Shown here one piece after another: positions 7,561-29,161 of a stretch of 64,000 nt of DNA. A program made the translations under genes and the position numbers. This stretch comes from Clostridia bacterium. Its GTDB lineage: Bacteria; Bacillota; Clostridia; UBA1381. The notes under the pieces are model-generated. The model had not been told where the DNA came from and searched no databases. It saw only the letters and a list, made by a program, of their open reading frames with translations. How positions within the stretch are numbered: position 1 is the stretch's first letter; each line of letters starts with the position of its first letter. The stretch spans positions 5,473 to 69,472 of the forward strand of contig JAGASE010000003.1 in assembly GCA_017621875.1 (NCBI GenBank). Reading direction: 5' to 3'.

Positions 7561-7581
7561 ACTTTCTAACATTTTTCTAAC
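7561..7581 (+). repeat. Arm-type site candidate (2 x TTTCTAAC[A]); exact inverted copy of 28999-29019
   Basis: ACTTTCTAACATTTTTCTAAC is the exact reverse complement of GTTAGAAAAATGTTAGAAAGT at 28999-29019. Each contains two direct TGTTAGAAA units. Confidence 0.6.
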
Positions 7582-7638
7582 CAAACGTACTTTAATTGTA
7601 ATTTTAGTAAATGATTGATGGTGGCTGGGTTACTCTTG

Positions 7639-7741
7639 AAAAGTGGAAAAATTTCGCATCATTATGCGGGTTTTAGGTGATTTTACATAATGTTACTTAA
7701 TGCATTATAATATCACCTAAAACCGCCCTTTTTCCACTTTT
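7639..7741. repeat. About 100 bp long imperfect inverted repeat abutting and overlapping the att core
   Basis: The outer arms are AAAAGTGGAAAAA (7639-7651) and TTTTTCCACTTTT (7729-7741). The inner arms are GCGGGTTTTAGGTGAT (7666-7681) and ATCACCTAAAACCGC (7712-7726). Confidence 0.6.
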
Positions 7742-7781
7742 AATCAAGTTGTCCGGAGTTCGAATCTCCGATGGCTCACCA
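7736..7781 (+). mobile_element. attR-like 46 nt duplicate of the 3' part of tRNA-Lys(UUU)
   Basis: ACTTTTAATCAAGTTGTCCGGAGTTCGAATCTCCGATGGCTCACCA is identical to the anticodon-loop-to-CCA portion of the complete tRNA-Lys at 29086-29161, which is on the opposite strand. No 5' half is present here. Confidence 0.85.
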
Positions 7782-8046
7782 ATCAAAGACGCTTAAGCAC
7801 TATGTTTGAGCGACTTTTTGTTTGCAGATTTTTAAACAAAATATTTGGCATTACACAATTTGTTTTATATACCTACCCTATTGTTTGCCATAAAAACGAT
7901 AGAAAACTCCGAAATTACTCATCCCCGCTTTTATTATAAATATGCTGCGTGAAAAGACAGAAAGCGGCTTTACAGACTTGACAAGATTATTGAGTTGTGC
8001 TCAAAATTTCATCTTATAAAAGAATAAGTTTTGTACCCTATTTCCC

Positions 8047-8075
8047 TTGACAAAGACTGAACGCTGTGATATATT
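8047..8075 (+). promoter_or_regulatory. Sigma-70 promoter for the MFS transporter gene
   Basis: TTGACA, a 17 nt spacer, then TATATT. Confidence 0.5.
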
Positions 8076-8153
8076 ACATGTGTTTGAGTAAATATGTGGC
8101 AAATTTGAGCCTTAAAGAGCCCAATCCACGGAATCTGAACGGAGGAATGGTAT

Positions 8154-9362
8154 ATGCAATTATTCAAGGACACAGAGGTAAGAAAAGCATTTTACTTAGG
8201 AGCAATTTGTACGATTTCTTACATGGCAATTTATTTCGCAAGAAATATTCTCGGCGTAATAACGCCGGAAATGATTGAAACAACAGGCTTCACGATTGAA
8301 TTTATCGGCACACTCTCCACCTCCTGTATGATTTTTTATGCCGTAGGTCAGCTCATAAACGGCTTGGCAGGCGATATAATCAACGCAAAGTATATGGTCA
8401 GCGGCGGTTTGTTTTTGGCGGGAATATGTAATTTTATCGTTCCCTTTTCAAGCTCGTCTATGGTAATGCTTGCCGCATATAGCATGAGTGGCTTTTTCCT
8501 TTCTATGATTTATGCACCAATCACAAAGGTTGTTGCTGAAAACACACTCCCCGAATACGCCGTAAGATGCTGTTTGGGATATACGGTTGCGTCATTTTTG
8601 GGAGCTCCTGCAGCATCAATTGCGTCAATATTTTTTAATTGGAAAAATGTCTTTATATTATGCAGCCTTGTTCTTATGCTTATGGGAATCTCCTGCTTTA
8701 TCGTCTTTACAATATTCGAGAAAAACGACATAATACAATATAATCGGGTAAAAAAGGATAAAACCAAAGGCAGCGTCAAGGTTTTAATTCAAAATTCAAT
8801 CATAAAATTCACAATAGTTTCAGTTTTAACAGGTATTGTACGTACCTCGGTTGTTTTCTGGATTCCTACATATTTATCTCAGTATCTTGGATTTTCCTCC
8901 ACTGCAGCCGCCGCAATATTTACGGCTATAACTCTGATGAAATCGGCATCGCCGTTCTATAACGTATTTATATATGAAAGAATATTAAAGCGAAACATGA
9001 ATGCTATGCTGCTTCTTATGTTCAGCCTGAGTGCGGTATGCTTTGCCCTGATGTTTGTAATGCACAATCCGATACTAAACACCCTGTTTTTACTTCTTGC
9101 ACTGGTATCCTCGGCAGGTGCGTCCACAATGCTGTTCAGTGTATATTGCCCAAGTCTAAGCCATACCGGAATGGTTTCAAGTGCAACCGGCTTTCTCGAT
9201 TTTATGAGCTATGTTGCCGCAGCTACCGCGAATCAGCTGTTCGCCAATGCTGTTTCCGATATAGGCTGGGGAAACCTGATTCTTGTATGGGCAGCATTAA
9301 TGCTTGTCGGTGTTATCGCATCACTGCCGTTTAAAAAAACCAAGACCTTATCTGTTAAGTAA
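8154..9362 (+). CDS. MFS transporter (12 TM; organophosphate/sugar-phosphate antiporter-like)
   Basis: The 402 aa product has about 12 hydrophobic segments in a 6+6 layout with a basic central loop (RVKKDKTKGS). GGAGGA lies upstream of the ATG. Confidence 0.8.
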   Translation: MQLFKDTEVRKAFYLGAICTISYMAIYFARNILGVITPEMIETTGFTIEFIGTLSTSCMIFYAVGQLINGLAGDIINAKYMVSGGLFLAGICNFIVPFSSSSMVMLAAYSMSGFFLSMIYAPITKVVAENTLPEYAVRCCLGYTVASFLGAPAASIASIFFNWKNVFILCSLVLMLMGISCFIVFTIFEKNDIIQYNRVKKDKTKGSVKVLIQNSIIKFTIVSVLTGIVRTSVVFWIPTYLSQYLGFSSTAAAAIFTAITLMKSASPFYNVFIYERILKRNMNAMLLLMFSLSAVCFALMFVMHNPILNTLFLLLALVSSAGASTMLFSVYCPSLSHTGMVSSATGFLDFMSYVAAATANQLFANAVSDIGWGNLILVWAALMLVGVIASLPFKKTKTLSVK

Positions 9363-9401
9363 TTCTGTTTACATTTACCTGAACAATTTTTCGCTAAAGC
9401 A

Positions 9402-9430
9402 TTGACATTTACAAAAAATAAATTTATAAT
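9402..9430 (+). promoter_or_regulatory. Sigma-70 promoter upstream of hydG
   Basis: TTGACA (9402-9407), a 17 nt spacer, then TATAAT (9425-9430). This leaves a leader of about 130 nt. Confidence 0.55.
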
Positions 9431-9569
9431 TTAATTAGAAAATCAAATCTGACTCTGACGGTAAAGGGATTCCTGCACGGAAAGATGAAGGTGTCATTTA
9501 TATTATACAAGATACCTCTGTCTTTTTCGGCAGAGGTTATTATATTGGGAAAACGAAAGGAATGATTTT

Positions 9570-10988
9570 ATGTATAATCCGAAATCAATGAAGGCAGAGG
9601 AATTTATCTCTCATGACGAAGTTCTCGACACCCTCAAATATGCCGATGAAAATAAAGATAATTTTGAGCTTATTGACGCTCTTATCGAAAAAGCAGCCGA
9701 GAGAAAAGGACTTTCGCACCGAGAGGCATCTGTTCTGCTTGCCTGCGAGGACGAGGTGCGTATTCAAAAAATATACAGCCTTGCCGAACAGATTAAAAAG
9801 GACTTTTACGGCAACCGTATCGTAATGTTCGCACCGCTGTATCTGTCAAACTATTGCGTAAACGGCTGTACCTACTGCCCGTATCACGCAAAAAACAAGC
9901 ACATTGCTCGCAAAAAGCTTACGCAGGAGGATATCGTGCGTGAGGTAACGGCTCTGCAGGATATGGGACACAAGCGTCTTGCCATTGAGGCAGGCGAGCA
10001 CCCAACGATGAACCCGATTGAATATATCCTTGAATCAATTAATACCATCTATTCAATCAAGCACAAAAACGGTGCTATTCGTCGTGTTAACGTAAATATT
10101 GCGGCAACCACTGTTGAAAACTACAGAAAGCTCAAGGACGCCGGAATCGGAACATATATTCTTTTCCAGGAAACCTACCACAAGGAAAGCTATGAAAAGC
10201 TGCACCCGACAGGTCCTAAGCATGACTATGCGTACCACACCGAGGCAATGGACCGTGCCATGGAGGGCGGCATTGACGACGTAGGCTTGGGCGTACTGTT
10301 CGGACTGGAGCTTTATCGGTACGAGTTTGCGGCACTACTCATGCACGCAGAGCATCTTGAGGCAGTTCACAATGTAGGTCCGCACACAATCAGTGTTCCG
10401 CGAATTAAACATGCCGACGATATCGACCCTACCGCATTTGACAACAGCATCAGTGATGAAATATTTGCAAAGCTATGTGCACTTATCCGCATAAGCGTGC
10501 CGTATACAGGCATGATTATTTCCACACGCGAATCAAAAGAGGTACGCGAGAAGGTTATACGCCTTGGAGTATCGCAGATAAGCGGTGCATCCCGAACCAG
10601 CGTGGGCGGCTACGACGCTCCTGAAGAGGAGGACGATTGCTCCGAGCAGTTTGACGTAAGTGATAAGCGTACTCTTGACCAGGTTGTAAAATGGCTCATG
10701 GAGCTGGGATATATCCCGTCCTTCTGCACTGCCTGCTACCGCGAGGGACGTACCGGTGACCGCTTTATGACGCTGCTTAAAAACGGACAAATTCAGAACT
10801 GCTGTCACCCCAACGCTTTGATGACGCTTAAGGAATATTTGATGGATTACGCCTCGGAGGAAACAAGAGAAATCGGCGAAAAGCTTATTATTGCCGAGCT
10901 TGAAAATATCCCAAAGGAAAATGTGCGTAAAATATGCGAAGAAAACCTCAGAAAAATCGGCGAGGGTATCCGCGATTTCAGATTCTAA
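9570..10988 (+). CDS. hydG: [FeFe]-hydrogenase H-cluster maturase HydG (radical SAM tyrosine lyase)
   Basis: It has the radical SAM motif CVNGCTYCPY. It also has the HydG-type C-terminal cysteine cluster SFCTACYREGRTGDRFM...NCCHPNA. The length of 472 aa fits HydG rather than ThiH. Confidence 0.85.
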   Translation: MYNPKSMKAEEFISHDEVLDTLKYADENKDNFELIDALIEKAAERKGLSHREASVLLACEDEVRIQKIYSLAEQIKKDFYGNRIVMFAPLYLSNYCVNGCTYCPYHAKNKHIARKKLTQEDIVREVTALQDMGHKRLAIEAGEHPTMNPIEYILESINTIYSIKHKNGAIRRVNVNIAATTVENYRKLKDAGIGTYILFQETYHKESYEKLHPTGPKHDYAYHTEAMDRAMEGGIDDVGLGVLFGLELYRYEFAALLMHAEHLEAVHNVGPHTISVPRIKHADDIDPTAFDNSISDEIFAKLCALIRISVPYTGMIISTRESKEVREKVIRLGVSQISGASRTSVGGYDAPEEEDDCSEQFDVSDKRTLDQVVKWLMELGYIPSFCTACYREGRTGDRFMTLLKNGQIQNCCHPNALMTLKEYLMDYASEETREIGEKLIIAELENIPKENVRKICEENLRKIGEGIRDFRF

Positions 10989-11046
10989 AGATTTCATAAG
11001 TCAAAAAGTGCTGCACGAGCGTGCGGCACTTTTTAATTATATACTT

Positions 11047-13545
11047 TTATTTTTCCATTCTTTTGCTTACCGCCTTTTGCAGCTCCACAATAACAATAGG
11101 CAGCACCGACAATACTGCAACAATCACCCATTGTGTTCCCGTTAGCGGTGTTACTTTAAACAGCTTTGCCAAGACGCTTATGTTCACTACACAAGCCTGC
11201 ATCAAAATTCCTGCCGCAAGCGACACCAAAAGCATAGGGTTTCGGAAAAATTCTTTGTTTAAAACCGAGCCTTCGCTCCGCATATTAAACGCATGGAAAA
11301 GCTGCGACATTGACAGCACGCAAAACGCCATTGTTCTGGCGATTTGAGGTGACGTCCCCATATCGAACAGGTTATGCCCTATCGAAAATGCAAGAAGTGC
11401 AAGCGCTCCTATCATGCCGCCCTCAACGCAAATCGACGCCCACAAGCCATCCGCAAACAGACTTTTTTTCGGATTTCTCGGTTTTCTGAGCATTATCCCC
11501 TCATCAACCGGGTCAAGTCCCAGTGCAATCGCCGGCAAAGAATCGGTTACAAGGTTTACCCAAAGCAGCTGAATTGCCAAAAGCGGCGGCTCCCAGCCGA
11601 ACAGCATACCTATAAAAATCGTAATAACCTCGCCTATATTTGACGAAAGCAGGAATTGTATAGATTTTTTTATATTTTCAAAAATCCCTCTGCCCTCACG
11701 TACCGCCGCAACAATCGTTGCAAAATTATCGTCCGCCAGAACAAGGTCGGAAGCCTCCTTTGCAACATCTGTACCCTTCATTCCCATACTGCAGCCGATA
11801 TCTGCAGCTTTTAAAGCCGGTGCGTCGTTGACACCGTCACCCGTCATTGCCACAACATCTCCGTTTTTCTTAAATGCCTTGATAATCCGCATTTTATCCG
11901 CAGGTGTAACTCTGGCAAAAATTCTATACCCGCAAATTTCCTCATCGCTTTTTTCGGCAAGCTCCTCGCCGGTGAGAGCCTTGCCGCAGATTCCCACCTG
12001 CTGTGCAACAGCCTCCGCCGTAATTTTGTTATCGCCTGTAATCATAACAGGCTTTATGCCTGCACGAATACATTCGCTTACCGACCGCTGCACCTCCGGT
12101 CTCGGCGGATCCATCATTCCGATAAGCCCCGTAAAAACCAAGCCGCTTTCGCTTATGCTGCTCTGCATCGTGTCCTTATATGCCACGCCGATAACACGCA
12201 AAGCCGCCTCGCCCATTCGCCGCACGTCTGCAAGAATTTGTCTTCTTTTCGGCTCAGTCAGCTCGCACATCGCACCATTTTCGATGCAATGCGTACATTT
12301 TTTCAGCAAAATTTCCGCTGCACCCTTGGTTATTATTCGCCTTTTACCGTAGTACATAACCATAACGCTCATCAGCTTACGCTTGGAATCAAAGGGCAGC
12401 TCGCAAATGCGTGAATGTCCCTGCACATCGCTGATTCCGAGCCGCTTTGCTTCATTTAAAATTGCCGCCTCGGTAGGGTTTGCTGTGCCGTCGCAGCATA
12501 GCGACGCCATCTCAAACAGCTGCAGCTTATCCTCTGCCACACTTTCGGTAACGGTCATGCGATTTTGTGTGAGTGTCCCCGTTTTATCGGCACAAATTAC
12601 GGTTGCACCACCCAATGACTCCACAGCAGAGAGCTGCTTTACAATGGATTTTTTCTTTGCCATTCGCTGTACTCCCATTGCAAGCACCACCGTAACTATT
12701 GCCGGAAGTCCCTCAGGGATTGCCGCTACCGCAAGACTTACCGAAGTCAAAAACATTGAAAAAGGCGGCATATTTTTTAAAAGTCCCATAACGAAAATAA
12801 CTGCACAAATCGCAAGTGCTCCTATGCCTAAGTATTTGCCTGTTTCCGCCAGTTTTTTCTGCAGTGGTGTCGGCTCTTCCGCCTCGCTTGTCAGCATATC
12901 AGCAATTCTGCCCATTTCCGTGTCCATTCCTATTGCTGTAACAATCGCCTCCGCCTTTCCCTGTATAATGCAGGTGGAGGCAAAGACCATGTTCCGACGC
13001 TCGGCAAGAGGCGTAAATTCGTCAAGAACACAGTCACTTTCCTTGCCTGCCGGCATCGCCTCGCCTGTCAGGGTGGATTCATCGGCTTCGAGATTGACCG
13101 CCTTTAAAAGACGTGCATCGGCACTTACGCAGTCACCCGTTTTAAGCAGCAGTACATCGCCTATACGTACCTCCTCGGAGGGTATTGTCATAAGCTTTCC
13201 GCCGCGTCTTACCTCCGCCTGCGGCGATGACATTTTTTTGAGTGCCTCAATAGCGTTGTCCGCTTTGCTTTCCTCAAATACACCAAGTACCGCGTTTAAT
13301 ATCACAATCGCTAAAATTATTATAGGATCAAGAAAATCGCTCTCCTCTCCTATAACAGACACAAAAAAGGAGATAGCCGCGGCAATCAGCAGTATTATTG
13401 TCATAAAATCGGAAAACTGCATGAAAAATCGTTGTAAAAGACTTTTTTTCTTTTTTGTACGCAAACAATTTTTGACCCGTACATCAAAGCCTGTGCGGGA
13501 TATGTACTCTGCAGCTTCTGCTGCCGTCATCGCATAAAAGTTCAT
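11047..13545 (-). CDS. Calcium-translocating P-type ATPase (P2A/PMCA-SERCA-like)
   Basis: It has DKTGTLT, TGDN and GDGVNDAPALK motifs and 10 predicted TM segments. The start is chosen at ATG 13545 (MNFYAMTAAEA...), which has GAGGG upstream. The longest ORF extends to 13581. Confidence 0.9.
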   Translation of the reverse strand: MNFYAMTAAEAAEYISRTGFDVRVKNCLRTKKKKSLLQRFFMQFSDFMTIILLIAAAISFFVSVIGEESDFLDPIIILAIVILNAVLGVFEESKADNAIEALKKMSSPQAEVRRGGKLMTIPSEEVRIGDVLLLKTGDCVSADARLLKAVNLEADESTLTGEAMPAGKESDCVLDEFTPLAERRNMVFASTCIIQGKAEAIVTAIGMDTEMGRIADMLTSEAEEPTPLQKKLAETGKYLGIGALAICAVIFVMGLLKNMPPFSMFLTSVSLAVAAIPEGLPAIVTVVLAMGVQRMAKKKSIVKQLSAVESLGGATVICADKTGTLTQNRMTVTESVAEDKLQLFEMASLCCDGTANPTEAAILNEAKRLGISDVQGHSRICELPFDSKRKLMSVMVMYYGKRRIITKGAAEILLKKCTHCIENGAMCELTEPKRRQILADVRRMGEAALRVIGVAYKDTMQSSISESGLVFTGLIGMMDPPRPEVQRSVSECIRAGIKPVMITGDNKITAEAVAQQVGICGKALTGEELAEKSDEEICGYRIFARVTPADKMRIIKAFKKNGDVVAMTGDGVNDAPALKAADIGCSMGMKGTDVAKEASDLVLADDNFATIVAAVREGRGIFENIKKSIQFLLSSNIGEVITIFIGMLFGWEPPLLAIQLLWVNLVTDSLPAIALGLDPVDEGIMLRKPRNPKKSLFADGLWASICVEGGMIGALALLAFSIGHNLFDMGTSPQIARTMAFCVLSMSQLFHAFNMRSEGSVLNKEFFRNPMLLVSLAAGILMQACVVNISVLAKLFKVTPLTGTQWVIVAVLSVLPIVIVELQKAVSKRMEK

Positions 13546-13627
13546 TAAAATCAATCCCTCTCTGTTTATTCTTACTAACATTACTATGTTTTTTTAGTAT
13601 AATTATGCAAAGTTTTTTGTGTCCCTA

Positions 13628-13655
13628 TTGCAATTTCCAAAACCTGTGGTATAAT
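13628..13655 (+). promoter_or_regulatory. Sigma-70 promoter for the Y1-transposase-like gene
   Basis: TTGCAA, a 16 nt spacer, then TATAAT. It is flanked by two GTGTCCCTA boxes (about 13618 and about 13712). Confidence 0.45.
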
Positions 13656-13740
13656 AACAACAAGGGGTGCTGTACTGCAGCGAAAACGAGGTATAAATAA
13701 TTTAATTATTAGTGTCCCTAATAACAAAAGAGGTGATTAT

Positions 13741-14511
13741 ATGGCTCGAAAAGGCAGAGTTTTAAGTGACATAGGAATTTATCATATTCTTCTGCGCGGT
13801 GTAAACGTACTTTTTGAAAGCGACGCGGATTTTAATGAATTTACGGCTATTCTCCAAAGATATTCCGAGGATAAAAGCGTACAGATTTTTTCCTATACAC
13901 TTTTGAAAAACAGAATTCATTTGGTTATTTACTCAGACAGTGATATCGGCAAAGCGTTAAAGCCGATTTGTACAAGCTATGCAAGATACTTTAACCGCAC
14001 CTACGGCGGTAGCGGAAAACTGTTTTATGACCGTTTCAAAAGCGAGCCGATTAATTCAAATGATGAGCTTCGCAGTGCAGTTGGCTTTGTAAATGCAATT
14101 TCGGCAAAATCCGCCAGCGACTATCCCTACTGCTCCCTTTCGGACGCCGGCAGAAAAATTTGCACAGGAAGCGGCAGACTTACCGCTGCTGAACTCACCG
14201 CCGCTCAAGTTACCGAAATGTACATAGAGGACTATGATTGTCTGTCCCCAAAAGAAATTTCTGAATATATTACGGATATATGCGGCATCGCACCAAAGGA
14301 TTTCAAGACACTTGAAAAGCAGCAGCTTGATGCGGCTCTTGAAAGGCTTACAAAAAAGCGCTGGATTTCACGCACTAAGCTGTACGATATTTTGGGCATC
14401 AAAAAAATCCAGACAAAACCATCGGCTCCAAAGACCACGCCAAAGCCTGCTCCAAAGACTGAGCCGCAGCCGAGACAGCAGAAGCAGGAGCTGAGCGTTT
14501 GGCTTTTATAA
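13741..14511 (+). CDS. IS200/IS605-type Y1 (HUH) transposase-domain protein, apparently catalytically degenerate, with a basic and proline-rich C-terminal extension
   Basis: IYHILLRGVN...FSYTLLKNRIHLVIY...YARYFNRTYGGSGKLFYDRFKSEPI matches the Y1_Tnp / COG1943 fold pattern. No IS ends or partner tnpB are visible. Confidence 0.65.
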   Translation: MARKGRVLSDIGIYHILLRGVNVLFESDADFNEFTAILQRYSEDKSVQIFSYTLLKNRIHLVIYSDSDIGKALKPICTSYARYFNRTYGGSGKLFYDRFKSEPINSNDELRSAVGFVNAISAKSASDYPYCSLSDAGRKICTGSGRLTAAELTAAQVTEMYIEDYDCLSPKEISEYITDICGIAPKDFKTLEKQQLDAALERLTKKRWISRTKLYDILGIKKIQTKPSAPKTTPKPAPKTEPQPRQQKQELSVWLL

Positions 14512-14521
14512 GGAGGATAAC

Positions 14522-15100
14522 ATGAACAAAAAGCTTAAATACACAATTTTCGGACAAATACTTCATACACTCACATCACATGCCGGCATTGCGGTTATGT
14601 TTGCGTTTTTATGGCTCATTATGATTGCAGTGTGGACTACAAAAATAGGCGGTTATGCTTTTGGAATAATAGGCATACTTACATATTTCCTTGCAATATA
14701 TAACGCCGGCTGCGACGCTGCACTGGACGACAAAAAGCCGTATAGTCCGTTAACGCCAAAGCCTGCCAAAGGCTTAATTTTGCCGGTTCTGCTCACCGCC
14801 GTGAACATTTTATTCATCGTTCTTTACAAATGCTCATGGGCGTTTGGCTCTACTGACGGCTACATCAAGGAGGTGTGGGCAATTATAGGAAATATACTTT
14901 CAATATTGTGGTTTTCTATGTATAAAACCTTCCTTGGCATGGAAAGAGGACATTTTGAGCTTCAGGGATATCTAATCATTCTCATTCTGCCGTTTATCGC
15001 TTCGGCTTTGGGTTACTTTGCAGGATACAACGGATATGATATCTACGGCAAACTCAACAGCCTGGCTTATGAAAAAAGCAAAAAAAAGAAAAAGAAATAA
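14522..15100 (+). CDS. Hypothetical integral membrane protein (about 5 TM, poly-Lys tail)
   Basis: It has a hydrophobic segment pattern and appears translationally coupled to the upstream gene, with GGAGGA 5 nt upstream. Confidence 0.6.
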   Translation: MNKKLKYTIFGQILHTLTSHAGIAVMFAFLWLIMIAVWTTKIGGYAFGIIGILTYFLAIYNAGCDAALDDKKPYSPLTPKPAKGLILPVLLTAVNILFIVLYKCSWAFGSTDGYIKEVWAIIGNILSILWFSMYKTFLGMERGHFELQGYLIILILPFIASALGYFAGYNGYDIYGKLNSLAYEKSKKKKKK

Positions 15101-15113
15101 AATGTATCTGATC

Positions 15114-15150
15114 AAACGCAGGCCTATGCATAACCTGCGTTTTCTTTTTT
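15114..15150. terminator. Bidirectional terminator between convergent genes
   Basis: AAACGCAGG...CCTGCGTTT is followed by TCTTTTTT. Confidence 0.65.
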
Positions 15151-15173
15151 GCGTATATATAATAGGAAGAAAG

Positions 15174-15440
15174 TCAGACAAACCGCGATACTATAAATAT
15201 GCCCACGCCGAGCAAAATAACTCCTGCAGAGACTATTCCTGCAGCAAGCCGCGTATTATTCCTCGCAACCGGCTTTACCATGGTTTTTGTTCCCATATAT
15301 TTTTCAACAATCCTCTCTGCCTCAAGCATTACATTTGTGTCACTTTCCCCTGCAGTGTCCTTTAAAATTAAAATCGCCTGCGAAATTAAAGCTGAATTTA
15401 CATTTTTTAGTATAACAACCCTATGAGTAGTGTTTTTCAT
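15174..15440 (-). CDS. Hypothetical small protein with a C-terminal membrane anchor
   Basis: The 88 aa product has a soluble N-terminal region and a C-terminal TM segment (LAAGIVSAGVILLGVGIFIVSRFV). Confidence 0.5.
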   Translation of the reverse strand: MKNTTHRVVILKNVNSALISQAILILKDTAGESDTNVMLEAERIVEKYMGTKTMVKPVARNNTRLAAGIVSAGVILLGVGIFIVSRFV

Positions 15441-15763: not shown

Positions 15764-15791
15764 ATGCGGGAAGGTATAGGAGGAAAGAAAA

Positions 15792-19788: not shown

Positions 19789-19796
19789 ATTATACA

Positions 19797-22700: not shown

Positions 22701-22802
22701 GTCGGAAAACGCAGTCGCAATATACTCCGACATTGAATATTCTGCCGAAGCCTTCGGGATAAAAGCCGCAAAAAGCAGCAATAAAATCAAAACTTTTTTC
22801 AC
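19797..22802 (-). CDS. Large cell-surface protein: signal peptide, SLH-like N-terminal region, many GLUG-motif repeats
   Basis: The signal peptide is MKKVLILLLLFAAFIPKASA. SLH-like segments are present (FSDV.DGDWY, ATRAEFAVMLTRFL). About 20 GG(I/L)(A/C/V)G motifs occur (GGICG, GGIAG, GGIVG), as in the GLUG repeat family. Confidence 0.7.
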   Translation of the reverse strand: MKKVLILLLLFAAFIPKASAEYSMSEYIATAFSDGVISGDESGNFHADKAATRAEFAVMLTRFLNIDGGMNVFSDVRDGDWYADALSAANYHGLIVGDEYGRAKPQDLISRQDAITILGRWFAAESENRAETEGVSEYAVGYYAYALENNLLDTQNEKAPQEFVTKGELVKLMYDYDIQSTAKVRFLTKYPRLASEGVFNHISIEVRTNKPCTIYYGLAEAGAPYYNADTKLCEITNPKAAVSVSIGANSNVTYDVYLKAVTADGISGGTAVIKNVQPFAIAAGDGSEDMPYVIYTEQQLAQVSARPDKCYRLGSDIEVSGSWNGVEDFSGTFDGNGYRISGITIDKNAEAVGLFKKITGGTVKNLAVDAVINTKKNAGIIAGKNEGGSILNCSVTGSVSANTDNAGGICGTNSGTIRNCLSAVYSVVAGSFAGGIAGQNFGTVENCIAAVEVVAADMYAGGICGTNDNGRIDTCVSACMTVYDTLTKNSGRLTTNKKSGITKNNYCYEDVNSNASYEEPGRFSQNGYDVSWQELCTMSFYEGIGFAQGAWTAVKGGFRLICPKNVSEPQLLAGKTMYFPKAVTSAAELRAIDENEAGHYILTKDITIDLPWKTICAKNGFSGSLDGDGHTIYSLNLKSEAGMFSNITGGTVRNLTLRDVKASLGTSGAILTACNYGYIINCKIYGKIDTKKSGYVGGIAGENHGEIDGCDVVIDININNNNITVGGICAENGGRITDSVYRGVITLSGENAVAGGICGYNAGGDIFECFSGAEILGGLASGYVGGICGINEAAGVYKCASAGRIVSDDADNVYIGGICGLVQEATVYNCFSNTDIYVSAEGGYAGGIVGCNSASNVQNTYSSGNVVTVGELAVGGICGYAENGFVMQNVSLNSAINGLGSIGAIVGEYELSEVSDNYSCDKTLINSKYILSSVNNGTVKSLSVLKNTDFYYKPISEGGLLGWGSDKYGEEIWTQNSIRGYSFPRLCGVREQEVLKMPVYK

Positions 22803-22813
22803 ATTTGCACCTC

Positions 22814-24232
22814 CTACATAATAGGTGAAAATAATCTGAAAAAACCTTCCTTAATCATTTTTATAATTCCGCGTTTTTTATACGCCTCTATAGTCAGCTC
22901 ATTGCACACCGACTGATCTTTTTCAAAAATTCTACGACATTCGATTGCTTTTTTGTCGCTGTACATAAACGCATTCAGTTCAAACAGCAGACGGAAGCTG
23001 CGGATATCAATATTAGTGCTTCCTATAGTACATATGTGGTCATCTACAGTCATGGTTTTGGAATGTATAAAGCCGGGATACAGATATACCTTAACACCTG
23101 CCTCCAAAAGCTCGCCCATATATGACATTGTCGTGTTGTAAACATATTTTTTATCAGGGATTCCCGGAATCATCACACGCACGTCCACGCCTGACTTTGC
23201 CGCAGAGGAAACCGCCGTCAAAAACGCATCATCAGGAACAAAGTACGGGGTTTGTATATAGGCATACTGTTTTGCACCATAAAGCATTCTTATCATACCG
23301 CACTTAATTTCTTCACTCTCAGAGTCAGGACCCGATGCGACAATCTGCATAGCGGTATCTCCTGCCGCAGCCGCATCTCCGCCTGTCTTTACCGGGATTT
23401 TCTTACCTGTGGAAAATTCCCAGTCCATCGCAAAGCATCGCTGTACGTATTCCACAGCATCGCCCTCAAAGCGGATATGCGTATCTCGCCAGGGCAAATT
23501 CTTTTTATTTCTTCCCATGTATTCATCGCCGATATTCATGCCGCCGAGATATGCGATTTTATCGTCCACCACAACAATTTTGCGGTGGTTTCTGTGATTT
23601 ATTTTAGACATTGAGAAAATCCGCACCGGGAAAAATTCCTCAACCTCGCTCGACTCCACTGCACGAAGTCTGTTAAAAAGCCTCCGCGGCGTCAATATTG
23701 AGCCGAAGCCGTCATACATAAGGCGGACCTTGACTCCCTCTCTTGCCTTTTCGCACAAAAGGTCGATAAGGCGGTTTCCGATGTTGTCGTTTCTTATTAT
23801 AAAATACAGGATATTTATGCTTTCCTTTGCATTTTTGATGTCCTCTAAAAGAGCGTCATACTTTTTTTCCGCATCGGCGAAAATTTCTACCGAGTTATTT
23901 GCACAGTAAACACAATTATAGTTAAGGAAATATTTTATCATTCCCGAATGAGGCAGCTCTTCACCGCGTTGCTCGCGAATCAGCTCCTTTTGCTTTTTAA
24001 GGATAGATTTCTCGTTCATTTCCAATTTTTCCATATATTTTCGCCTTGTATACGCCTTTATACCCACGCCGAAAATCAGAAACAAAATTCCGCCAACCGT
24101 AGGCACTAAAATGAGAAATAAAATCCACGCCATAGAGGAAATCGGATTTCGTCTTTGAAAACATACGATTGTTATTATTATGATAATATTAAGCAGATAC
24201 GATATCCAAATAAGATTTGTCAAGGCTTCCAT
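22814..24232 (-). CDS. cls: Cardiolipin synthase (PLD superfamily)
   Basis: It has two N-terminal TM segments and two HKD motifs (HRKIVVVDD and HSKTMTVDD). Confidence 0.9.
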   Translation of the reverse strand: MEALTNLIWISYLLNIIIIITIVCFQRRNPISSMAWILFLILVPTVGGILFLIFGVGIKAYTRRKYMEKLEMNEKSILKKQKELIREQRGEELPHSGMIKYFLNYNCVYCANNSVEIFADAEKKYDALLEDIKNAKESINILYFIIRNDNIGNRLIDLLCEKAREGVKVRLMYDGFGSILTPRRLFNRLRAVESSEVEEFFPVRIFSMSKINHRNHRKIVVVDDKIAYLGGMNIGDEYMGRNKKNLPWRDTHIRFEGDAVEYVQRCFAMDWEFSTGKKIPVKTGGDAAAAGDTAMQIVASGPDSESEEIKCGMIRMLYGAKQYAYIQTPYFVPDDAFLTAVSSAAKSGVDVRVMIPGIPDKKYVYNTTMSYMGELLEAGVKVYLYPGFIHSKTMTVDDHICTIGSTNIDIRSFRLLFELNAFMYSDKKAIECRRIFEKDQSVCNELTIEAYKKRGIIKMIKEGFFRLFSPIM

Positions 24233-24261
24233 CGCTCTTCGACCTCCCTAAAATAGCGATT

Positions 24262-24690
24262 TTATTTTCTCCTGAATTTGTACGAAACTCCCGCAACAGC
24301 CGTTCCGACTATAGTTCCGATAAAATCTATAAACACGTCCTGTATCATGCCTGCCCGCCCATACGAGAAAAGCTGGATATACTCGTCAATGCACGCAGTA
24401 AGCAGTCCGAAAAACAGTATGTAAATTATTCGGCGGTTATACGGCATTTCAAAGCAGTTCGCAAGGAGAATCCCATGAAGTGTAAATTCGGCAATATGTG
24501 CCGTTTTACGCACTATCAGTATTACAAGCTCCCTATCCGGGGCTTGTCCGAGCAGCCCGAAAATCCACAGGATTCTGTCCGCAATGCCTCCACTGTTTTG
24601 CGAGGATATCTCGGCAGTCTGCATTGAATTGCTGAATATAAATAATGTTGCTATCACCGTAGCAACAATAAACGGTAAACGTCTTTTCAC
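24262..24690 (-). CDS. VanZ-family membrane protein
   Basis: It has 4 TM segments. RKTAHIAEF and DEYIQLF...D...D..G are VanZ-like signatures. Confidence 0.7.
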   Translation of the reverse strand: MKRRLPFIVATVIATLFIFSNSMQTAEISSQNSGGIADRILWIFGLLGQAPDRELVILIVRKTAHIAEFTLHGILLANCFEMPYNRRIIYILFFGLLTACIDEYIQLFSYGRAGMIQDVFIDFIGTIVGTAVAGVSYKFRRK

Positions 24691-24864
24691 AATCTTTTCT
24701 TCCTTATTATTAGTATATATAAGTTTATTATATCACAAATTTGCGATTTGGGAATAGCTTTTGCGGTTTTTTAGTAAAAATTTATTATTTTGCAGCAAAA
24801 AAGAGGCTGAAGAAGGGTCAGCCTCTGTGAGTTATAGAAGTGGCATCGCAGACAATACCAAAGA

Positions 24865-25053
24865 TTACAACCTGTTTTTTATTCTGCTCACTATTTTATT
24901 ATATTCTCCCAAATAATACTGATAGATAGGACATTCGTCCGTATTACAGCTGCTGCAAAATTTTTCGTGCATTTCATCGGTTATTGACTTTCCGCCCAAT
25001 TCGCAATAATAACCGCTTTCTGTCTTCGAGCAAGAGCTACATTTTTCAGCCAT
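24865..25053 (-). CDS. Small Cys-rich (zinc-ribbon-like) hypothetical protein
   Basis: The 62 aa product has CSSC...C and CSSCNTDEC pairs, GGAGG upstream and its own terminator at about 24801-24835. It is divergent from an XRE gene. Confidence 0.5.
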   Translation of the reverse strand: MAEKCSSCSKTESGYYCELGGKSITDEMHEKFCSSCNTDECPIYQYYLGEYNKIVSRIKNRL

Positions 25054-25179
25054 ATTACAGCCTCCTTTTTAATATATCTTCATTTTAACACAAATAATAG
25101 CGTATGTCAATAATTTTATACAAGCATTGATATTTTTAATTCGATAATTGTATATTATAGTTAACATAAGGTGATAGTT

Positions 25180-25476
25180 ATGTATAAACTCAGTGAAAGA
25201 TTAAAAGAGCTTAGAAAACGTAATAACATTAGTCAAAATGCACTTGCAAAACAAATGAATTTGACAAGAGCAACCATAAATGCATGGGAAATGGGGATAA
25301 ATTATCCCACCGCTCAATCTCTTATTATGCTTGCAGATTTTTTCAACGTAACTTCTGACTATATTTTGGGCTTGGATTCTGTTGAAACAATAAACATCAG
25401 CAAACTAAATGACGCAGAAAAGAAAATGATTTGTGACATGGTTAAATATTTAGGTGATATAAAATCGGATATGTAA
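25180..25476 (+). CDS. XRE-family HTH transcriptional regulator
   Basis: LKELRKRNNISQNALAKQMNLTRATINAWEMG is a classic HTH_3 motif. The start is placed at ATG 25180, which has AAGGTGA upstream. Confidence 0.8.
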   Translation: MYKLSERLKELRKRNNISQNALAKQMNLTRATINAWEMGINYPTAQSLIMLADFFNVTSDYILGLDSVETINISKLNDAEKKMICDMVKYLGDIKSDM

Positions 25477-25553
25477 AACGTGCGACCAATTTCTGTCGCC
25501 TGCTTGTATTTCCGACTCTTGACAAATCGCCCAATATGCTATATAATAAAAAT

Positions 25554-25638
25554 ACAAAAGGCAAGACCTCAAACGGTTATGCCAAAAGAATGTATTTATA
25601 AAAATAACGCTTCATTTGACCGTGGGCGTTATTTTTTT
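25554..25638 (+). ncRNA. Candidate antisense sRNA (antitoxin-like), copy 1
   Basis: A perfect TTGACA (25519-25524), 17 nt spacer and TATAAT (25542-25547) are present. The hairpin AATAACGC/GCGTTATT (25603-25633) plus U5 follows about 85 nt downstream. It is convergent with, and overlaps the 3' end of, the 22-codon ORF. It is homologous to the minus-strand unit at 33819-33906. Confidence 0.5.
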
Positions 25639-25697
25639 ATGGAAATTACTAAAAGTAACAGAATTATCATAAATGATATTATGTATTCATTATCCAT
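25629..25697 (-). CDS. 22-aa hydrophobic peptide MDNEYIISFMIILLLLVISIKK (type I toxin-like), copy 1
   Basis: Too short for the ORF track. A GGGGGTGA RBS lies 5 nt before the ATG at 25697. It has a single TM-like core and a KK tail. It is a paralogue of the ORF at 33760-33828, with 17 of 22 residues identical by eye. Confidence 0.5.
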   Translation of the reverse strand: MDNEYIISFMIILLLLVISIKK

Positions 25698-25773
25698 AGC
25701 TATCACCCCCTTTGCAAGAGATGATGGCATAACCGCCCAGCTTTTACGCTTGTTTTGGTCTTACCCGATAAAT

Positions 25774-25802
25774 ATTATACCCCAATTCTACAATTTTTGC
25801 AA
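25774..25802 (-). promoter_or_regulatory. Sigma-70 promoter for the small-peptide mRNA, copy 1
   Basis: On the minus strand: TTGCAA (25802-25797), a 17 nt spacer, then TATAAT (25779-25774). This gives a 5' UTR of about 70 nt. Confidence 0.5.
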
Positions 25803-26028
25803 TATGACATTCTTCAATTTATCCATTTGCAGTTTTCTATATAATAAATTTATAATTTATCAATATATTTACCCCGATTTTTATGCAAAATTTGCAAAAA
25901 ATGAAAAAAACGTCAAAAAAATAACGTAATAGGCTTGTATATTTTGCATTTTTGGTGTAAAATATAGTAAGATAAGCAAGGAATGGTTTTTTCTTGTTTA
26001 AAATATTATGTATTGGAGGACTTTTAAC

Positions 26029-27060
26029 ATGGCAGTTAAAGTTGCAATTAACGGTTTTGGACGTATCGGCCGTCTGGCATTCCGTCAGATGTTCGGTGCA
26101 GAGGGATATGAAATTGTTGCTATCAACGATTTGACAGATCCAAAAATGTTGGCTAACCTTCTTAAGTATGACACAGCTCAGGGCGGTTACTGCGGAAGAC
26201 TTGGCGAAGGCTTACACACAGTTGAAGCAGGCGAAGGCTCAATCACAGTTGACGGTAAAAAAATCACAATCTACGCTGAAAAGGACGCTAAGGATCTTCC
26301 TTGGGGCGAACTGGGTGTAGACGTTGTTTTAGAGTGTACAGGTTTCTACTGCTCAAAGGCTAAATCACAGGCTCACATCGATGCAGGTGCTAAGAAGGTT
26401 GTTATTTCCGCTCCTGCTGGCAATGACCTCCCAACAGTTGTTTACAGCGTAAACGAAGGTACATTAACAGCTGATGATACTATCATTTCAGCAGCTTCCT
26501 GTACTACAAACTGCTTGGCTCCTATGGCTAAGGCTCTTAACGATTACGCTCCTATCCAGTCAGGTATCATGTCAACAATCCACGCTTACACAGGCGACCA
26601 GATGATTCTTGACGGTCCGCACAGAAAGGGTGACCTTCGTCGTGCAAGAGCAGGTGCTGCTAACATCGTTCCTAACTCAACAGGTGCTGCAAAGGCTATC
26701 GGTCTTGTAATTCCTGAGCTGAATGGTAAGCTTATCGGTTCTGCACAGAGAGTTCCTGTTCCTACAGGTTCAACAACTATCCTTACAGCTGTTGTTAAGG
26801 GTACAGACGTTACTGTTGACGGCATCAACGCTGCTATGAAGGCAGCCGCTTCTGAAAGTTTCGGCTACAATGAGGATCAGATCGTTTCTTCAGACGTTAT
26901 CGGCATGAGATACGGCTCACTCTTCGATGCTACTCAGACAATGGTATCTAAGGTTGCTGATGACCTCTATGAGGTACAGGTTGTTTCTTGGTATGATAAC
27001 GAAAATTCATACACAAGCCAGATGGTTAGAACAATTAAGTACTTCGCTGAACTTAACTAA
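26029..27060 (+). CDS. gap: Type I glyceraldehyde-3-phosphate dehydrogenase
   Basis: It has [15 protein letters not shown] and the active site SCTTNCLAP. The start is placed at ATG 26029, which has GGAGGA upstream. Confidence 0.95.
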
Positions 27061-27074
27061 TTACAGCATTTTAA

Positions 27075-27100
27075 AAGAACCGGTTCGCCGGTTCTTTTTT
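27075..27100 (+). terminator. gap terminator
   Basis: GAACCGG-TTCG-CCGGTTC followed by TTTTTT. Confidence 0.8.
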
Positions 27101-27196
27101 ATTATGCAGGAAATTGCGTACAGCAATGACGGAATAACAAAACTGCTACCTTATTCCTACGCCCGCAGGCGGGGCTTTTATCAAAAGCTTTTTTAT
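27101..27196 (+). repeat. About 96 bp intergenic repeat element, copy A (second copy at 50230-50325)
   Basis: ATTATGCAGGAAA...AGCAATGACGGAATAACAAAA.TGCTACC....TCCTACGCCCGCAGGCGGGGCTT.TATCA.AAGCTTTTTTAT. Roughly nine positions in ten are shared with the copy at 50230-50325, which has the same orientation. Both copies begin immediately after a terminator T-run. Confidence 0.8.
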
Positions 27197-27204
27197 ACAT
27201 TATT

Positions 27205-27366
27205 TTATTGAGGTAATTCCTTTTCTTGTTTTTTCTTTAAATGAATTTTTAAAACCATATTTATATATTGAGAAAAAGAGCGTTCGGAATTTTCAGCCAA
27301 GTCCTTTATTTCGTTAATAACATTTTCATCTAACGTAATACTAACCTTTTGCTTTAGCGGTCTCAT
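27205..27366 (-). CDS. Ribbon-helix-helix (CopG/Arc/MetJ-like) DNA-binding protein, 53 aa
   Basis: Below the ORF-track cutoff. AGGTGA lies 6 nt before the ATG at 27366. In MRPLKQKVSITLDENVINEIKDLAENSERSFSQYINMVLKIHLKKKQEKELPQ, the KVSITLDE beta-strand plus the two-helix pattern is typical RHH. Confidence 0.6.
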   Translation of the reverse strand: MRPLKQKVSITLDENVINEIKDLAENSERSFSQYINMVLKIHLKKKQEKELPQ

Positions 27367-27411
27367 TTTTATCACCTCTGTCACTATAATACTACAAAAT
27401 AAAACAAAATA

Positions 27412-27442
27412 TTGACTTTTCTTATAAAGTAGTATAAAGTAG
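27412..27442 (+). promoter_or_regulatory. Promoter with a tandem 10-mer operator candidate (TATAAAGTAG x2) between the divergent RHH and Zn-ribbon ORFs
   Basis: TTGACT lies at 27412-27417. Perfect tandem repeats at 27423-27432 and 27433-27442 cover the spacer and -10 region. RHH proteins typically bind tandem repeats. Confidence 0.4.
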
Positions 27443-27456
27443 TATTAAAAGGGAGG

Positions 27457-27696
27457 GTGAGAATTTTGGCAGAATTTTGTTTGGACTGTTATAACAAATT
27501 TTTTTCAAGTAGTGATGAAAATTTAACAGAAAATGATATTATCTCCGATTTAGACTTATGTGAAGGCTGCGGAGAATATAAGCTTTGTATTATTAAAATA
27601 AAAGAAGACTATCTTCATAAGGTGACAAAGAAACGAAATACTAAATGGTATAGTTTTTTGAAGAAGCTTAGTACGAGGATATTTGGCAAATGCTAA
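27457..27696 (+). CDS. Small zinc-ribbon hypothetical protein (79 aa)
   Basis: It has a GTG start with GGGAGG upstream. CLDC...CEGC pairs and a basic C-terminus are present. Confidence 0.45.
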   Translation: MRILAEFCLDCYNKFFSSSDENLTENDIISDLDLCEGCGEYKLCIIKIKEDYLHKVTKKRNTKWYSFLKKLSTRIFGKC

Positions 27697-27717
27697 CCAT
27701 GAGATATTTATGTTTTA

Positions 27718-27851
27718 GCTAAATTTTGCAACAAGTCGCAAAGCTAAATTATCTCATTCCATTCGATAGCTAAATTGTTTTTTCAAAACAGCTAAATTAA
27801 ATTCGCCGTTAGCTGACCGCAGGTCAATTTAGCTACGAAGTAATTTAGCTA
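27718..27851. repeat. Array of six AGCTAAATT 9-mers (4 direct, then 2 inverted)
   Basis: AGCTAAATT occurs at 27718, 27743, 27769 and 27791. The reverse complement AATTTAGCT occurs at 27827 and 27843. A degenerate TAGCTGACC lies at 27811. Confidence 0.8.
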
Positions 27852-28568
27852 ATGTACATTTGTTTTCGATGGCAGAAAACAAATATAAAAGGATTAAAGC
27901 TTAAAAATGCTTGCAACATTTTTACGAGGATAAATCATATATTTCTGAAAAAGGTTCACAGTAATATATGATTGGTTGATAATTAAATAAGAGAAAAATC
28001 AGAATGTAGAAATTATCAAAGAGGATACCTACAATCTTTTTTTATCCTGATTTAGTTTGAAAGGTAAACGGGCCAAAAAAGGAAAACAACATTAGAAAGT
28101 CCTATCGGCACTTTTATACTGTCTTATAAAAGATGTACGGACAAAGGATGAAGATTAATATATAGAGGTTGGAATAAACGCAGAGTTTTCCATCGGATTT
28201 ATATGCGTAGACTTACAAAAACCGAAGAGGTAGGACAGTAGCTCAAACACGTTAGCGGACGTGGATAATATTACACATATGTCACCGCTATGACATATTT
28301 CAGTATCGGACGTATAGTCGCTTGAGTTTAGCAGGTAGGGATGTAACCGCAGGATTTTATCCAACCCAAATAAGCGGGAATATTACTAACCGGGCAATAT
28401 GCCGATAAAAGAATAAAGACCTCATATAAATGGAGACGAGTAAGATTTGGATGAAGATAAAGCTCGAATCTGTGCGGTTTGTAGGTATTTCATACAGGGA
28501 AATACAGTGGTAACTCATATAAAAACACCTACTACAACTATGTCCGATGTGCGAAAGAAAGGATTAAA

Positions 28569-28996
28569 ATGAATAATACATATAAAAATTTGGAAGTACA
28601 ATTTAACAAACTATTCCGTCATATAAATGTCGGAAGCTACAAAACAAGCGAGCGATATGCAAAAGCCTTTAAAAGATTTATGGCGGGTTGTCCTCGCGGA
28701 CAATCAAAATTGAAAGCCAATATGTCTTTACGCGTGAAGACGGCAGAATGTATTATCCAAGCTACCCGACTGAAATGCTTACAAAATGTCTCAAAAAGAA
28801 TAACATGCCTCACATACGCTGGCATGATTTAAGGCACTCATGTGCAAGCCTGCTTATACTGAAAGGTTGGCAGATGAAAGAAATATCCGAGTGGTTAGGT
28901 CATGCAGATATTGAAACAACAATGAACATTTACGGCCACTTAAATCTTGTGCACAAGCGCAAATTGGGCGATACACTAAATGGTTTACTTGGATAA
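28569..28996 (+). pseudogene. int: Tyrosine recombinase (phage integrase) remnant
   Basis: Frame 28688-28996 encodes only the C-terminal catalytic part, ...QYVFTREDGRMYYP...IRWHDLRHSCASLLILKG...LGHADIETTMNIYGHL (HxLRH and the Tyr box). An out-of-frame 38-aa N-terminal stub starts at 28569. The roughly 200 residues of core-binding domain and box I are missing. Confidence 0.75.
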
Positions 28997-28998
28997 AT

Positions 28999-29019
28999 GT
29001 TAGAAAAATGTTAGAAAGT
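28999..29019 (+). repeat. Arm-type site candidate (TGTTAGAAA x2) between int and the tRNA-Lys att core
   Basis: It is the exact reverse complement of 7561-7581. Confidence 0.6.
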
Positions 29020-29085
29020 GAAAAATCAAGGGTTTTACGAAAAAAGAAAAATCGCTCAAAACCCTTGGTTTTAAGCGATTTTTAC

Positions 29086-29161
29086 TGGTGAGCCATCGGA
29101 GATTCGAACTCCGGACAACTTGATTAAAAGTCAAGTGCTCTGCCAACTGAGCTAATGGCCC
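29086..29161 (-). tRNA. tRNA-Lys (anticodon UUU), encoded CCA
   Basis: The reverse complement is GGGCCATTAGCTCAGTTGGCAGAGCACTTGACTTTTAATCAAGTTGTCCGGAGTTCGAATCTCCGATGGCTCACCA, which folds as a cloverleaf with anticodon loop CTTTTAA. Confidence 0.92.

Follow-up and report, generated by a model that had tools for sequence, protein, structure and literature searches.

A decayed tRNA-Lys(UUU) genomic island split between inverted attachment sites around core genes in an uncultured Clostridia genome

Tyrosine integrases of the lambda type insert genomic islands and prophages into tRNA genes, their attachment (att) sites having P and P' arms with arm-type sites, and one class of tRNA integration takes place at the anticodon loop; the classification that Williams made in 2002 reportedly includes this anticodon-loop class. 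Chromosomal inversions with breakpoints in prophages or islands occur, for example, in Streptococcus pyogenes and Staphylococcus aureus, where they usually result from homologous recombination between two similar prophages or insertion sequence (IS) copies. Here we describe a tRNA-Lys(UUU) island in a window of 64,000 nucleotides (the whole stretch of DNA analysed) on contig C7 of a Clostridia genome, a metagenome bin of 1.99 Mb in 24 contigs that is called G000 below. The locus is a decayed, split tRNA-Lys island, a piece of genome archaeology that brings no new mechanism or kind of system, and its two att junctions lie in inverted orientation on either side of housekeeping genes. Recombination between inverted att sites has been described in other elements: the integrase of Thermococcus pTN3 inverts the DNA between inverted tRNA-derived att sites (PMC5495485), and the tripartite integrative and conjugative element ICE3 of Mesorhizobium makes use of inversion between inverted att sites (PMC5882170).

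For comparison, 20 genomes of the genus were searched (comparator genomes are labelled G001-G025, and G008:C25, for example, is contig C25 of G008). All comparators belong to other species than G000, with protein identities of ~50-85% for most core genes and above 95% for a few (e.g. gap). The tRNA-Lys(UUU) gene is the last member of a Gly-Arg-His-Gln-Lys tRNA array, which was present in 20/20 of these genomes. The two att sites of G000 are made up of the following features.

29086-29161, minus strand: complete tRNA-Lys(UUU) (ARAGORN; Rfam RF00005, 70.8 bits)
28999-29085, minus strand: P' arm of attL, with the doublet at 28999-29019 and an island-borne tRNA terminator; 92% identical to G008 attL
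7736-7781, plus strand: att core, displaced 3' 46 nt of tRNA-Lys(UUU), an exact copy of 29086-29131
7545-7735, plus strand: P arm of attR, including the doublet ACTTTCTAACATTTTTCTAAC (7561-7581); identity of 76% with the G008 island's P arm and with G006:C125
7782-7823, plus strand: B' flank, terminator hairpin after the tRNA fragment (flank alignment, repeat finder)

The attL core (29086-29131) consists of the 3' 46 nt of tRNA-Lys(UUU), from the anticodon loop to the 3' end, and the repeat finder returned a longer inverted repeat of 61 nt (7736-7796 vs 29071-29131, 93% identity), the likeness of the cores extending into the terminator. The doublet, 21 nt long, was exact at 7561-7581 (+) and 28999-29019 (-), again inverted. 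The exact 46-nt tRNA copy and the 21-nt doublet had two occurrences each, inverted, and none elsewhere in G000; the 3' 26 nt of the core had just two sites in the whole genome, at 7.7 kb and 29 kb of the window. In sequences shuffled with dinucleotide composition preserved, the expected number of matches was 0 for the doublet (<=2 mismatches) as well as for a 45-nt core pattern (<=3 mismatches). The exact 20-mer TGTTAGAAA-AA-TGTTAGAAA was found in the G000 genome at the 29-kb copy alone and was missing at 7.6 kb because that copy begins GGTTAGAAA. Read in the orientation of the tRNA, the doublet has the same polarity at both sites; at 7.7 kb it precedes the core by 154 nt, and at 29 kb it follows the tRNA after 66 nt. 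The hairpin of the B' flank has the stem CGCTTAA/TTGAGCG, which resembles the stem of the island-borne terminator in the P' arm. Over 27.0-29.2 kb, Rfam gave nothing except the tRNA. The tRNA-Lys genes of G000 are one UUU and one CUU.

A tRNA-integrating element duplicates the 3' end of its tRNA, with the full tRNA on the integrase-proximal side and the fragment on the distal side, and the exact 46-nt duplicate of G000 has this arrangement. Such an element is also bounded by attL and attR in direct orientation around contiguous element DNA, as was found in the relatives G008, G004, G009 and L100, whereas in G000 the sites are inverted and a conserved chromosomal block lies between them. By comparison with related islands, both G000 sites are true att junctions of one integrase/att family. 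An earlier note on this DNA had claimed the complete tRNA-Lys(UUU) at 29086-29161 (-), the exact inverted 46-nt copy at 7736-7781, the exact inverted 21-nt doublet with one polarity in tRNA orientation, and the attL/attR nature of both sites; these claims held up against, respectively, ARAGORN and Rfam, the repeat finder and genome search, the repeat finder and G008 comparison, and the orthologous G008 island together with a tRNA-Pro mini-island described below.

In G008, an intact island of ~22 kb was found in the same tRNA-Lys(UUU) with the same 46-nt core (G008:C25:43782-65752, JAZQEC010000025.1). Its attL DNA was 92% identical to window positions 28709-29238 and its attR P arm 76% identical to 7545-7782. 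The identical doublet is present on both arms, with the same polarity and on the same strand as both cores, and the cores are direct. Among its genes are those for two tyrosine recombinases and for an M78 protein of the IrrE-like type. An RHS-repeat protein of 1567 aa ends in a PGAP1-like C-terminus, a second RHS fragment is present, and several further large proteins had no Pfam match; no phage structural genes, no ugd and no tail cassette were found in the island. It differs from the G000 locus in being intact and direct, in its two recombinases, IrrE-like and RHS genes, and in having neither ugd nor the tail cassette. The earlier view of the G000 element as a prophage was not supported, the G008 orthologue being an RHS-toxin island with two recombinases and without structural genes. 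An intact related element with both modules of the G000 locus had also been proposed as a check: G008 supplied the intact island but not the tail cassette, which stands with the P arm in G006:C125.

Direct 46-nt fragments downstream of tRNA-Lys were detected in G004 (~6.6 kb), G009 (~8.7 kb) and G008 (~22 kb), and G000 was the only inverted case among the 20 genus genomes. The islands of G004 and G009 at the same tRNA have a different, 310-aa integrase, a WYL regulator, a resolvase and direct repeats of 46-47 nt, indicating that tRNA-Lys(UUU) is an integration hot spot.

A scan for the 21-mer doublet in one genome per species found seven contigs. In an Acutalibacteraceae metagenome-assembled genome (MAG), a 48%-identical integrase ends beside the doublet and tRNA-Pro(CGG), and a variant doublet lies ~150 nt upstream of a tRNA-Pro 3' fragment, 3.9 kb off and direct, the whole forming a mini-island. 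In two further MAGs, 3' fragments of other tRNAs are preceded, at a distance of ~170 nt, by the P-arm motif TTGTTGACGGACTTTCTAACATTTTTCTAAC. Across these occurrences the doublet is a conserved feature of both arms in a tRNA-targeting integrase family, and its conservation naturally suggests a putative arm-type binding site of the integrase. The att/integrase family of G000 and G008, which has the TTTCTAAC doublet on both arms, appears to be previously undescribed in uncultured gut Clostridia; its members target different tRNAs (Lys-UUU, Pro-CGG and others), and the doublet signature could help to delimit islands in MAGs. A doublet with the left flank of a P arm (TTGTTGACGG...) was also seen in L099 (JAZRKP010000022.1, 2017-2150), directly joined to the last 25 integrase codons; this scar looks as if recombination between direct attP doublets had deleted the core.

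On the right side of the G000 locus, the island DNA next to attL has been reduced to recombinase remnants and a non-coding stretch that ends at a junction, J1, with chromosomal DNA.

28709-28996, plus strand: integrase (int) remnant, last 95 residues, matching positions 254-348 of G008 Int (348 aa) at 94.7% identity
28569-28697, plus strand: second tyrosine recombinase (rec2), first 43 codons, 86% identical to the N-terminus of G008 rec2
27852-28568, plus strand: non-coding island DNA, 85% identity with the DNA that precedes the second recombinase gene of the G008 island
27710-27850, plus strand: repeat2, a AGCTAAAT-rich dispersed repeat, truncated, its tRNA-proximal end cut exactly at J1

The alignment placed the start of the island DNA on this side at 27852, and window positions 27858-28683 matched 837 nt of the G008 island at 85% identity. 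The rec2 protein of G008 has 290 aa with PF00589 and SAM-like domains; in G000, a 1.85-kb deletion joins its first 43 codons, out of frame, to the 3' end of int. The open reading frame (ORF) at 28688-28996 matched PF00589 (1.6e-14) and phrog_1 (1.4e-23). The integrase remnant covers positions 90-169 of the 172 of PF00589 and keeps the HxxR box and the catalytic Tyr region but is without the N-terminal and arm-binding domains; of a complete tyrosine recombinase, the first catalytic Arg region and the SAM-like domain have been deleted, and the remnant is a pseudogene. An integrase remnant had been assigned to the whole of 28569-28996, which is correct for the last 95 residues of int at 28709-28996, but 28569-28697 proved to be the start of rec2.

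At J1 (27850/27852), the 5'-truncated repeat2 meets G008-like island DNA. The RHH gene at 27205-27384 and the 79-aa ORF at 27457-27696 have homologues directly 3' of gap in G001:C8. The int-proximal module, originally drawn at 27.1-29.1 kb, is thus island DNA from 27852 on, while its part at 27.1-27.85 kb is chromosomal. The RHH and 79-aa genes were considered as island genes and rejected, as G001 carries both downstream of gap but does not have this island.

Two families of dispersed repeats were noted in this region. Repeat2 (~140-200 nt) occurred in 1-4 copies in 8/20 genus genomes and had no Rfam match; it may be a binding array of the iteron type or a small mobile element. In G000 it was also found at G000:C14:7803-8016 and G000:C23:8510-8660; it directly follows the terminator of tRNA-Arg(CCG) in G000:C14 and that of tRNA-Leu(CAA) in G001. 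A REP-like intergenic repeat of ~100 nt (80-92% identity, often in tandem) lies at 27094-27200, just past the gap terminator, as well as at window 50225-50326 and in more than 25 places on other G000 contigs. The gene at 13741-14511, a candidate RAYT-like relative of Y1 transposases, had no Pfam hit at 1e-5.

On the left side, the DNA that ends in the attR P arm begins at a second junction, J2.

4695-4781, plus strand: tRNA-Leu(CAA), chromosomal, at the left rearrangement junction (ARAGORN)
4782-4936, no strand: junction J2, native tRNA-Leu trailer to ~4868, shared with G006, then a filler of ~65 nt
4937-5728, plus strand: ugd', a 5'-truncated UDP-glucose 6-dehydrogenase gene (PF00984, PF03720; PHROG profile positions 152-376 of 382)
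5898-6457, plus strand: tail-fibre-like N-terminal gene, split into 119-aa and 66-aa ORFs (one ORF of 189-227 aa in G006, G008 and G015)
6451-7453, plus strand: genes for 272 aa and 56 aa, of the same probable phage late (distal tail) cassette (homologue context in G015, G021 and G025)

The tRNA-Leu(CAA) gene is conserved together with NlpC/P60 and ComEC in G001, G003, G006, G008 and G013. J2 (~4868-4936) joins its trailer and the filler to codon ~146 of ugd. The ~65-nt filler includes a GTTTTCCCCCA tandem and had no match in the island DNA of G008 or G006. By alignment with the full-length genes of G006 and G001, ugd' starts at about codon 146 of ~397. In G006:C125, full-length ugd, the four-gene cassette and a P arm (one doublet unit, no core) stand at the end of a long polysaccharide-type operon, and this unit of ugd, cassette and P arm links the left module to the same att family in two species.

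None of the four cassette ORFs (119, 66, 272 and 56 aa) had a Pfam match, and one matched a PHROG family of unknown function. The 119-aa protein had one weak match in INPHARED, to a protein of 708 aa that Butyrivibrio virus Ceridwen encodes downstream of its tail genes; the 272-aa protein had no match in this phage collection, and in scans of IMG/VR no match was obtained for the G008 integrase, for the 272-aa protein or for the doublet. The cassette homologues of G015 come after terminase, portal, major capsid, tape measure, Dit and minor tail protein genes, and those of G021 and G025 are followed by an Amidase_2 endolysin. This context of the homologues points to a phage-tail origin of the cassette. 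The tail genes that had been recognised on the 5' side of attR are therefore borne out by synteny in G015, G021 and G025, but not by protein families. Of the head, packaging, tail and lysis modules of a prophage, only the four-ORF distal-tail cassette is left in G000. Since the tail origin comes from context only and the G008 element is without phage structural genes, "genomic island with mosaic cargo" is the safer label compared to "prophage".

The cassette recurs beside polysaccharide-synthesis genes, without other phage genes, in three species (G000, G006 and G008). Its neighbour is ugd in both G000 and G006, where in G006 the gene closes a long operon; in G008:C22 the cassette adjoins the last part of an epimerase/glycosyltransferase cluster. 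The ugd genes of G000 and G006 were 95.7% identical, most core proteins being ~75% identical, which suggests that the ugd-cassette unit may have been transferred between species. Elsewhere in the genome, G000:C9:8513-20189 holds a same-strand ORF run laid out like the structural module of the G015 prophage, which was not scanned against family libraries; the last gene of the run encodes 355 aa, and its N-terminal part is paralogous (47-56%) to the 119/66-aa pair.

Between the two att sites lies one further feature.

7782-27850, no strand: core chromosomal block between the inverted att sites (Pfam; collinearity in relatives)

According to Pfam, the block encodes an MFS transporter, a HydG-like radical SAM protein, a P-type ATPase, a YabE-like protein, RsmA, cardiolipin synthase and GAPDH, and its end also includes the RHH protein, the 79-aa protein and the truncated AGCTAAAT repeat. 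The segment from the ATPase to gap was collinear in G001 and G008, with parts in G003, G006 and G013, and the earlier description of the intervening DNA as housekeeping DNA was confirmed in this way. G003 has an inversion of the three genes that lie upstream of gap, and in G001 and G008 the ATPase adjoins C18:4000-like genes. Neither MFS nor hydG is present in the block of G001 or G008. Over its C-terminal 257 residues, the HydG-like protein (window 9570-10988) was 98% identical between G000 and G013:C83/C58, compared to 73% for the adjoining ATPase. The MFS-hydG part of the block is accessory and possibly was recently exchanged.

We consider it slightly better than an even chance (roughly 0.55) that a single inversion, as the last step, explains the inverted att pair. 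A tyrosine-integrase genomic island, of a family that would recognise the TTTCTAAC doublet on both attP arms, would have entered tRNA-Lys(UUU) at the segment from the anticodon loop to the 3' end. Integration would have given a normal attL, in which tRNA, terminator and doublet are followed by int facing the tRNA. It would also have given a normal attR, made up of cargo, a doublet, 154 nt, the 46-nt tRNA fragment and host flank. A later chromosomal inversion of ~22.9 kb (window 4937-27850) would have had one breakpoint inside the island, within the ugd cargo gene, and the other in the chromosomal DNA that separated tRNA-Leu(CAA) from the AGCTAAAT repeat on the 3' side of gap. It would have flipped the attR half together with the adjoining core block, leaving an inverted att pair around 21 kb of housekeeping genes. 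Deletions would afterwards have removed the middle of the island, the 5' half of ugd and 1.85 kb of rec2 plus most of int.

The att architecture, its homology with intact islands, the truncations and the junction positions are observed directly; we infer this order of events, and the single inversion at its end, from the two junctions and from the gene order in relatives. One inversion with one breakpoint in the island and the other in the chromosome predicts a pair of junctions like J1 and J2, and both are specific to G000, being found in no relative compared, and each joins island DNA to chromosomal DNA. When the inversion of 4937-27850 was undone, a canonical island with direct attL...attR was obtained and gap-RHH-79aa-repeat2 became convergent with tRNA-Leu(CAA). 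In G001:C113, tRNA-Leu(CAA) is followed by repeat2 and then by the 3' end of gap on the opposite strand, an adjacency that gives the best comparative support for the single-inversion model. The earlier proposal of integration followed by one inversion thus fared well in that its reversal restores both the island and a G001-like gap/tRNA-Leu adjacency, but it needs extra deletions and has to contend with rearrangements across the genus. The alignment with relatives suggested as a check likewise gave a divided answer: G001:C113 has the gap/tRNA-Leu adjacency, but in G008 the block, oriented to the tRNA-Lys array as in G000, lies on the other side of that array.

Several observations weigh against a single inversion. 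Neither junction contains the 5' half of ugd, the island middle or the first ~45 nt of repeat2, and extra deletions must therefore be assumed. A flank with tRNA-Lys followed by MFS was found in no relative compared, the native trailers being different, and two scans of metagenomes, one for an empty attB and one for the B' flank, gave no match; the metagenome and viral collections scanned gave no same-species and no attB sequences. Repeat2 is dispersed (8/20 genomes), and its presence in the G001 adjacency may therefore be a coincidence. With 92% identity to G008 for the P' arm and 76% for the P arm, the two halves could come from different island lineages. Moreover, the neighbourhood is heavily rearranged across the genus. 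Gap adjoins a tRNA-Tyr-Thr-Val-Pro array in G006 and G008, and this array is 30 kb away in G000 (C7:3272-3640); the adjacency of gap and tRNA-Tyr, kept in G001, G006 and G008, is broken in G000. The relative orientation of block and tRNA-Lys array in G008 is that of G000. In G013, gap adjoins C21-like genes, while the block with the tRNA array is reversed with respect to the block beside it, and a C15-like flank adjoins tRNA-Leu in G008, while C15 of G000 joins the contig start, upstream of tRNA-Tyr. No inverted repeat and no microhomology were found at the breakpoints J1 and J2. GC skew tracked gene strand and was uninformative on inversion, and MFS homologues (<=64% identical) stood in unrelated catabolic operons and were uninformative on the ancestral flank of tRNA-Lys. 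A second tRNA-targeted island was noticed in the same neighbourhood: in G001:C8:15017-17859, a 57-nt tRNA-Tyr 3' fragment lies downstream of gap-RHH-72aa, followed by a 300-aa tyrosine recombinase and two HTH genes.

A possible, though unlikely, alternative is that the same split island went through several successive rearrangements (at least two inversions, or else the transposition of a block) in a rearrangement hot spot with tRNA genes, REP-like repeats and mobile elements at its borders, so that the inverted pair did not come from one inversion. Relatives disagree at almost every boundary, gap standing beside tRNA-Tyr in G001, G006 and G008, beside C21-like genes in G013 and beside tRNA-Leu in G001:C113, and at least two adjacent inversions are needed to start from a G008/G006-like order. 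However, island DNA is present at just two G000 junctions, as a single final island event predicts, and the remaining differences may be older than the integration or may have arisen in the lineages of the relatives. The unequal distance of the two arms from the G008 island (76% for P, 92% for P') would also fit two independent islands of the same family, inserted in opposite orientation at two tRNA-Lys(UUU) copies, the right one having lost its attR half and the left one its attL half and its tRNA gene. Repeat2, which elsewhere comes just after tRNA terminators (G000:C14, G001:C113), is oriented towards tRNA-Lys here, and a single deletion could account for J1. Such a history is improbable: it needs two integrations and two complementary deletions, G000 has a single tRNA-Lys(UUU), neither a 5' part of tRNA-Lys nor a trace of attL was found between tRNA-Leu and ugd', and the genus search gave one 89% match in G011 as a candidate second copy, the other extra matches being at 80-85%.

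We regard as very improbable that an integrase made the inversion, by recombination of an ectopic island copy with an intact attP, located between gap and tRNA-Leu, with an inverted attB 21 kb away. If the DNA between the cores were flipped, an exact attP (cassette-P-core-P'-int) would be restored together with an intact attB, and integrases invert DNA between inverted att sites, as described for pTN3 (PMC5495485). Yet this route needs a circularly permuted fragment, with a truncated ugd at one end, to have reached a non-att site by an unknown route, and J1 and J2 show nothing like an att site or a transposon end. Least probable of all is an artefact of assembly or a mixed population, in which C7 would pair the wrong flanks at the 46-nt repeat. 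G000 is a metagenome bin of 24 contigs, and Logan contigs (k=31) from three runs, 100% identical to the window, stop at the core repeat, as expected with this k; they confirm each flank separately and leave the pairing of the flanks undecided. A second strain (SRR31277381) was 99.75% identical, and its contig stops short of the att site; exact-protein look-ups otherwise returned only short Logan contigs ending at the 46-nt repeat. The contigs of the G000 assembly, on the other hand, overlap by 141 nt (k141 type), and overlaps of that length span the 46-61-nt repeat, which should not produce a misjoin. C7 runs unbroken through both 46-nt sites, and no contig with the alternative junction was present in the G000 genome.

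Returning to the single inversion as the preferred account, what is left of the island today is best read as a frozen, inert scar. Apart from its remnant, no cognate integrase was found in G000, whose other tyrosine recombinases were 25-27% identical to G008 Int. As Int is reduced to a C-terminal stub of 95 residues and the genome has no cognate integrase, the arrangement would be frozen; the earlier statement that site-specific recombination would now invert the 21-kb segment is not borne out for a resident enzyme. That the inverted attL/attR pair forms a latent invertible segment, activated in trans by the Int and directionality factor of an incoming related island, is decidedly improbable in our view. 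G008 Int is 95% identical to the G000 remnant over the retained part. If this reading were true, the 21-kb MFS-gap block would flip, an attP would be regenerated beside the tail cassette, as would an intact attB, and an incoming mobile element could reshape the core chromosome.

The locus offers a clean, well-bounded example of an integrated island turned breakpoint for chromosomal rearrangement, two att scars persisting as an inverted pair around core genes. As in lambda-type tRNA islands, the core runs from the anticodon loop to the 3' end and is duplicated, int adjoins the regenerated tRNA and converges on it, a short motif occurs on both arms with the same polarity, and the replacement terminator is supplied by the island. 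Unlike these islands, G000 has inverted att sites and an integrase of 95 residues, and arm binding at its doublet is proposed from conservation.

As in pTN3 and ICE3, inverted att sites flank chromosomal DNA, and recombination between them would invert and not excise it. In those systems the integrases are active, with recombination directionality factors in ICE3, and inversion is part of their biology, whereas the enzyme of G000 is dead and the proposed breakpoints of its inversion are not at the att cores. The prophage-linked inversions of Streptococcus pyogenes and Staphylococcus aureus differ in another respect, since one island copy is evident in G000 and no inverted repeat is present at the breakpoints; nevertheless, as in those cases, a mobile element marks the proposed inversion endpoint in G000, with its two halves separated.

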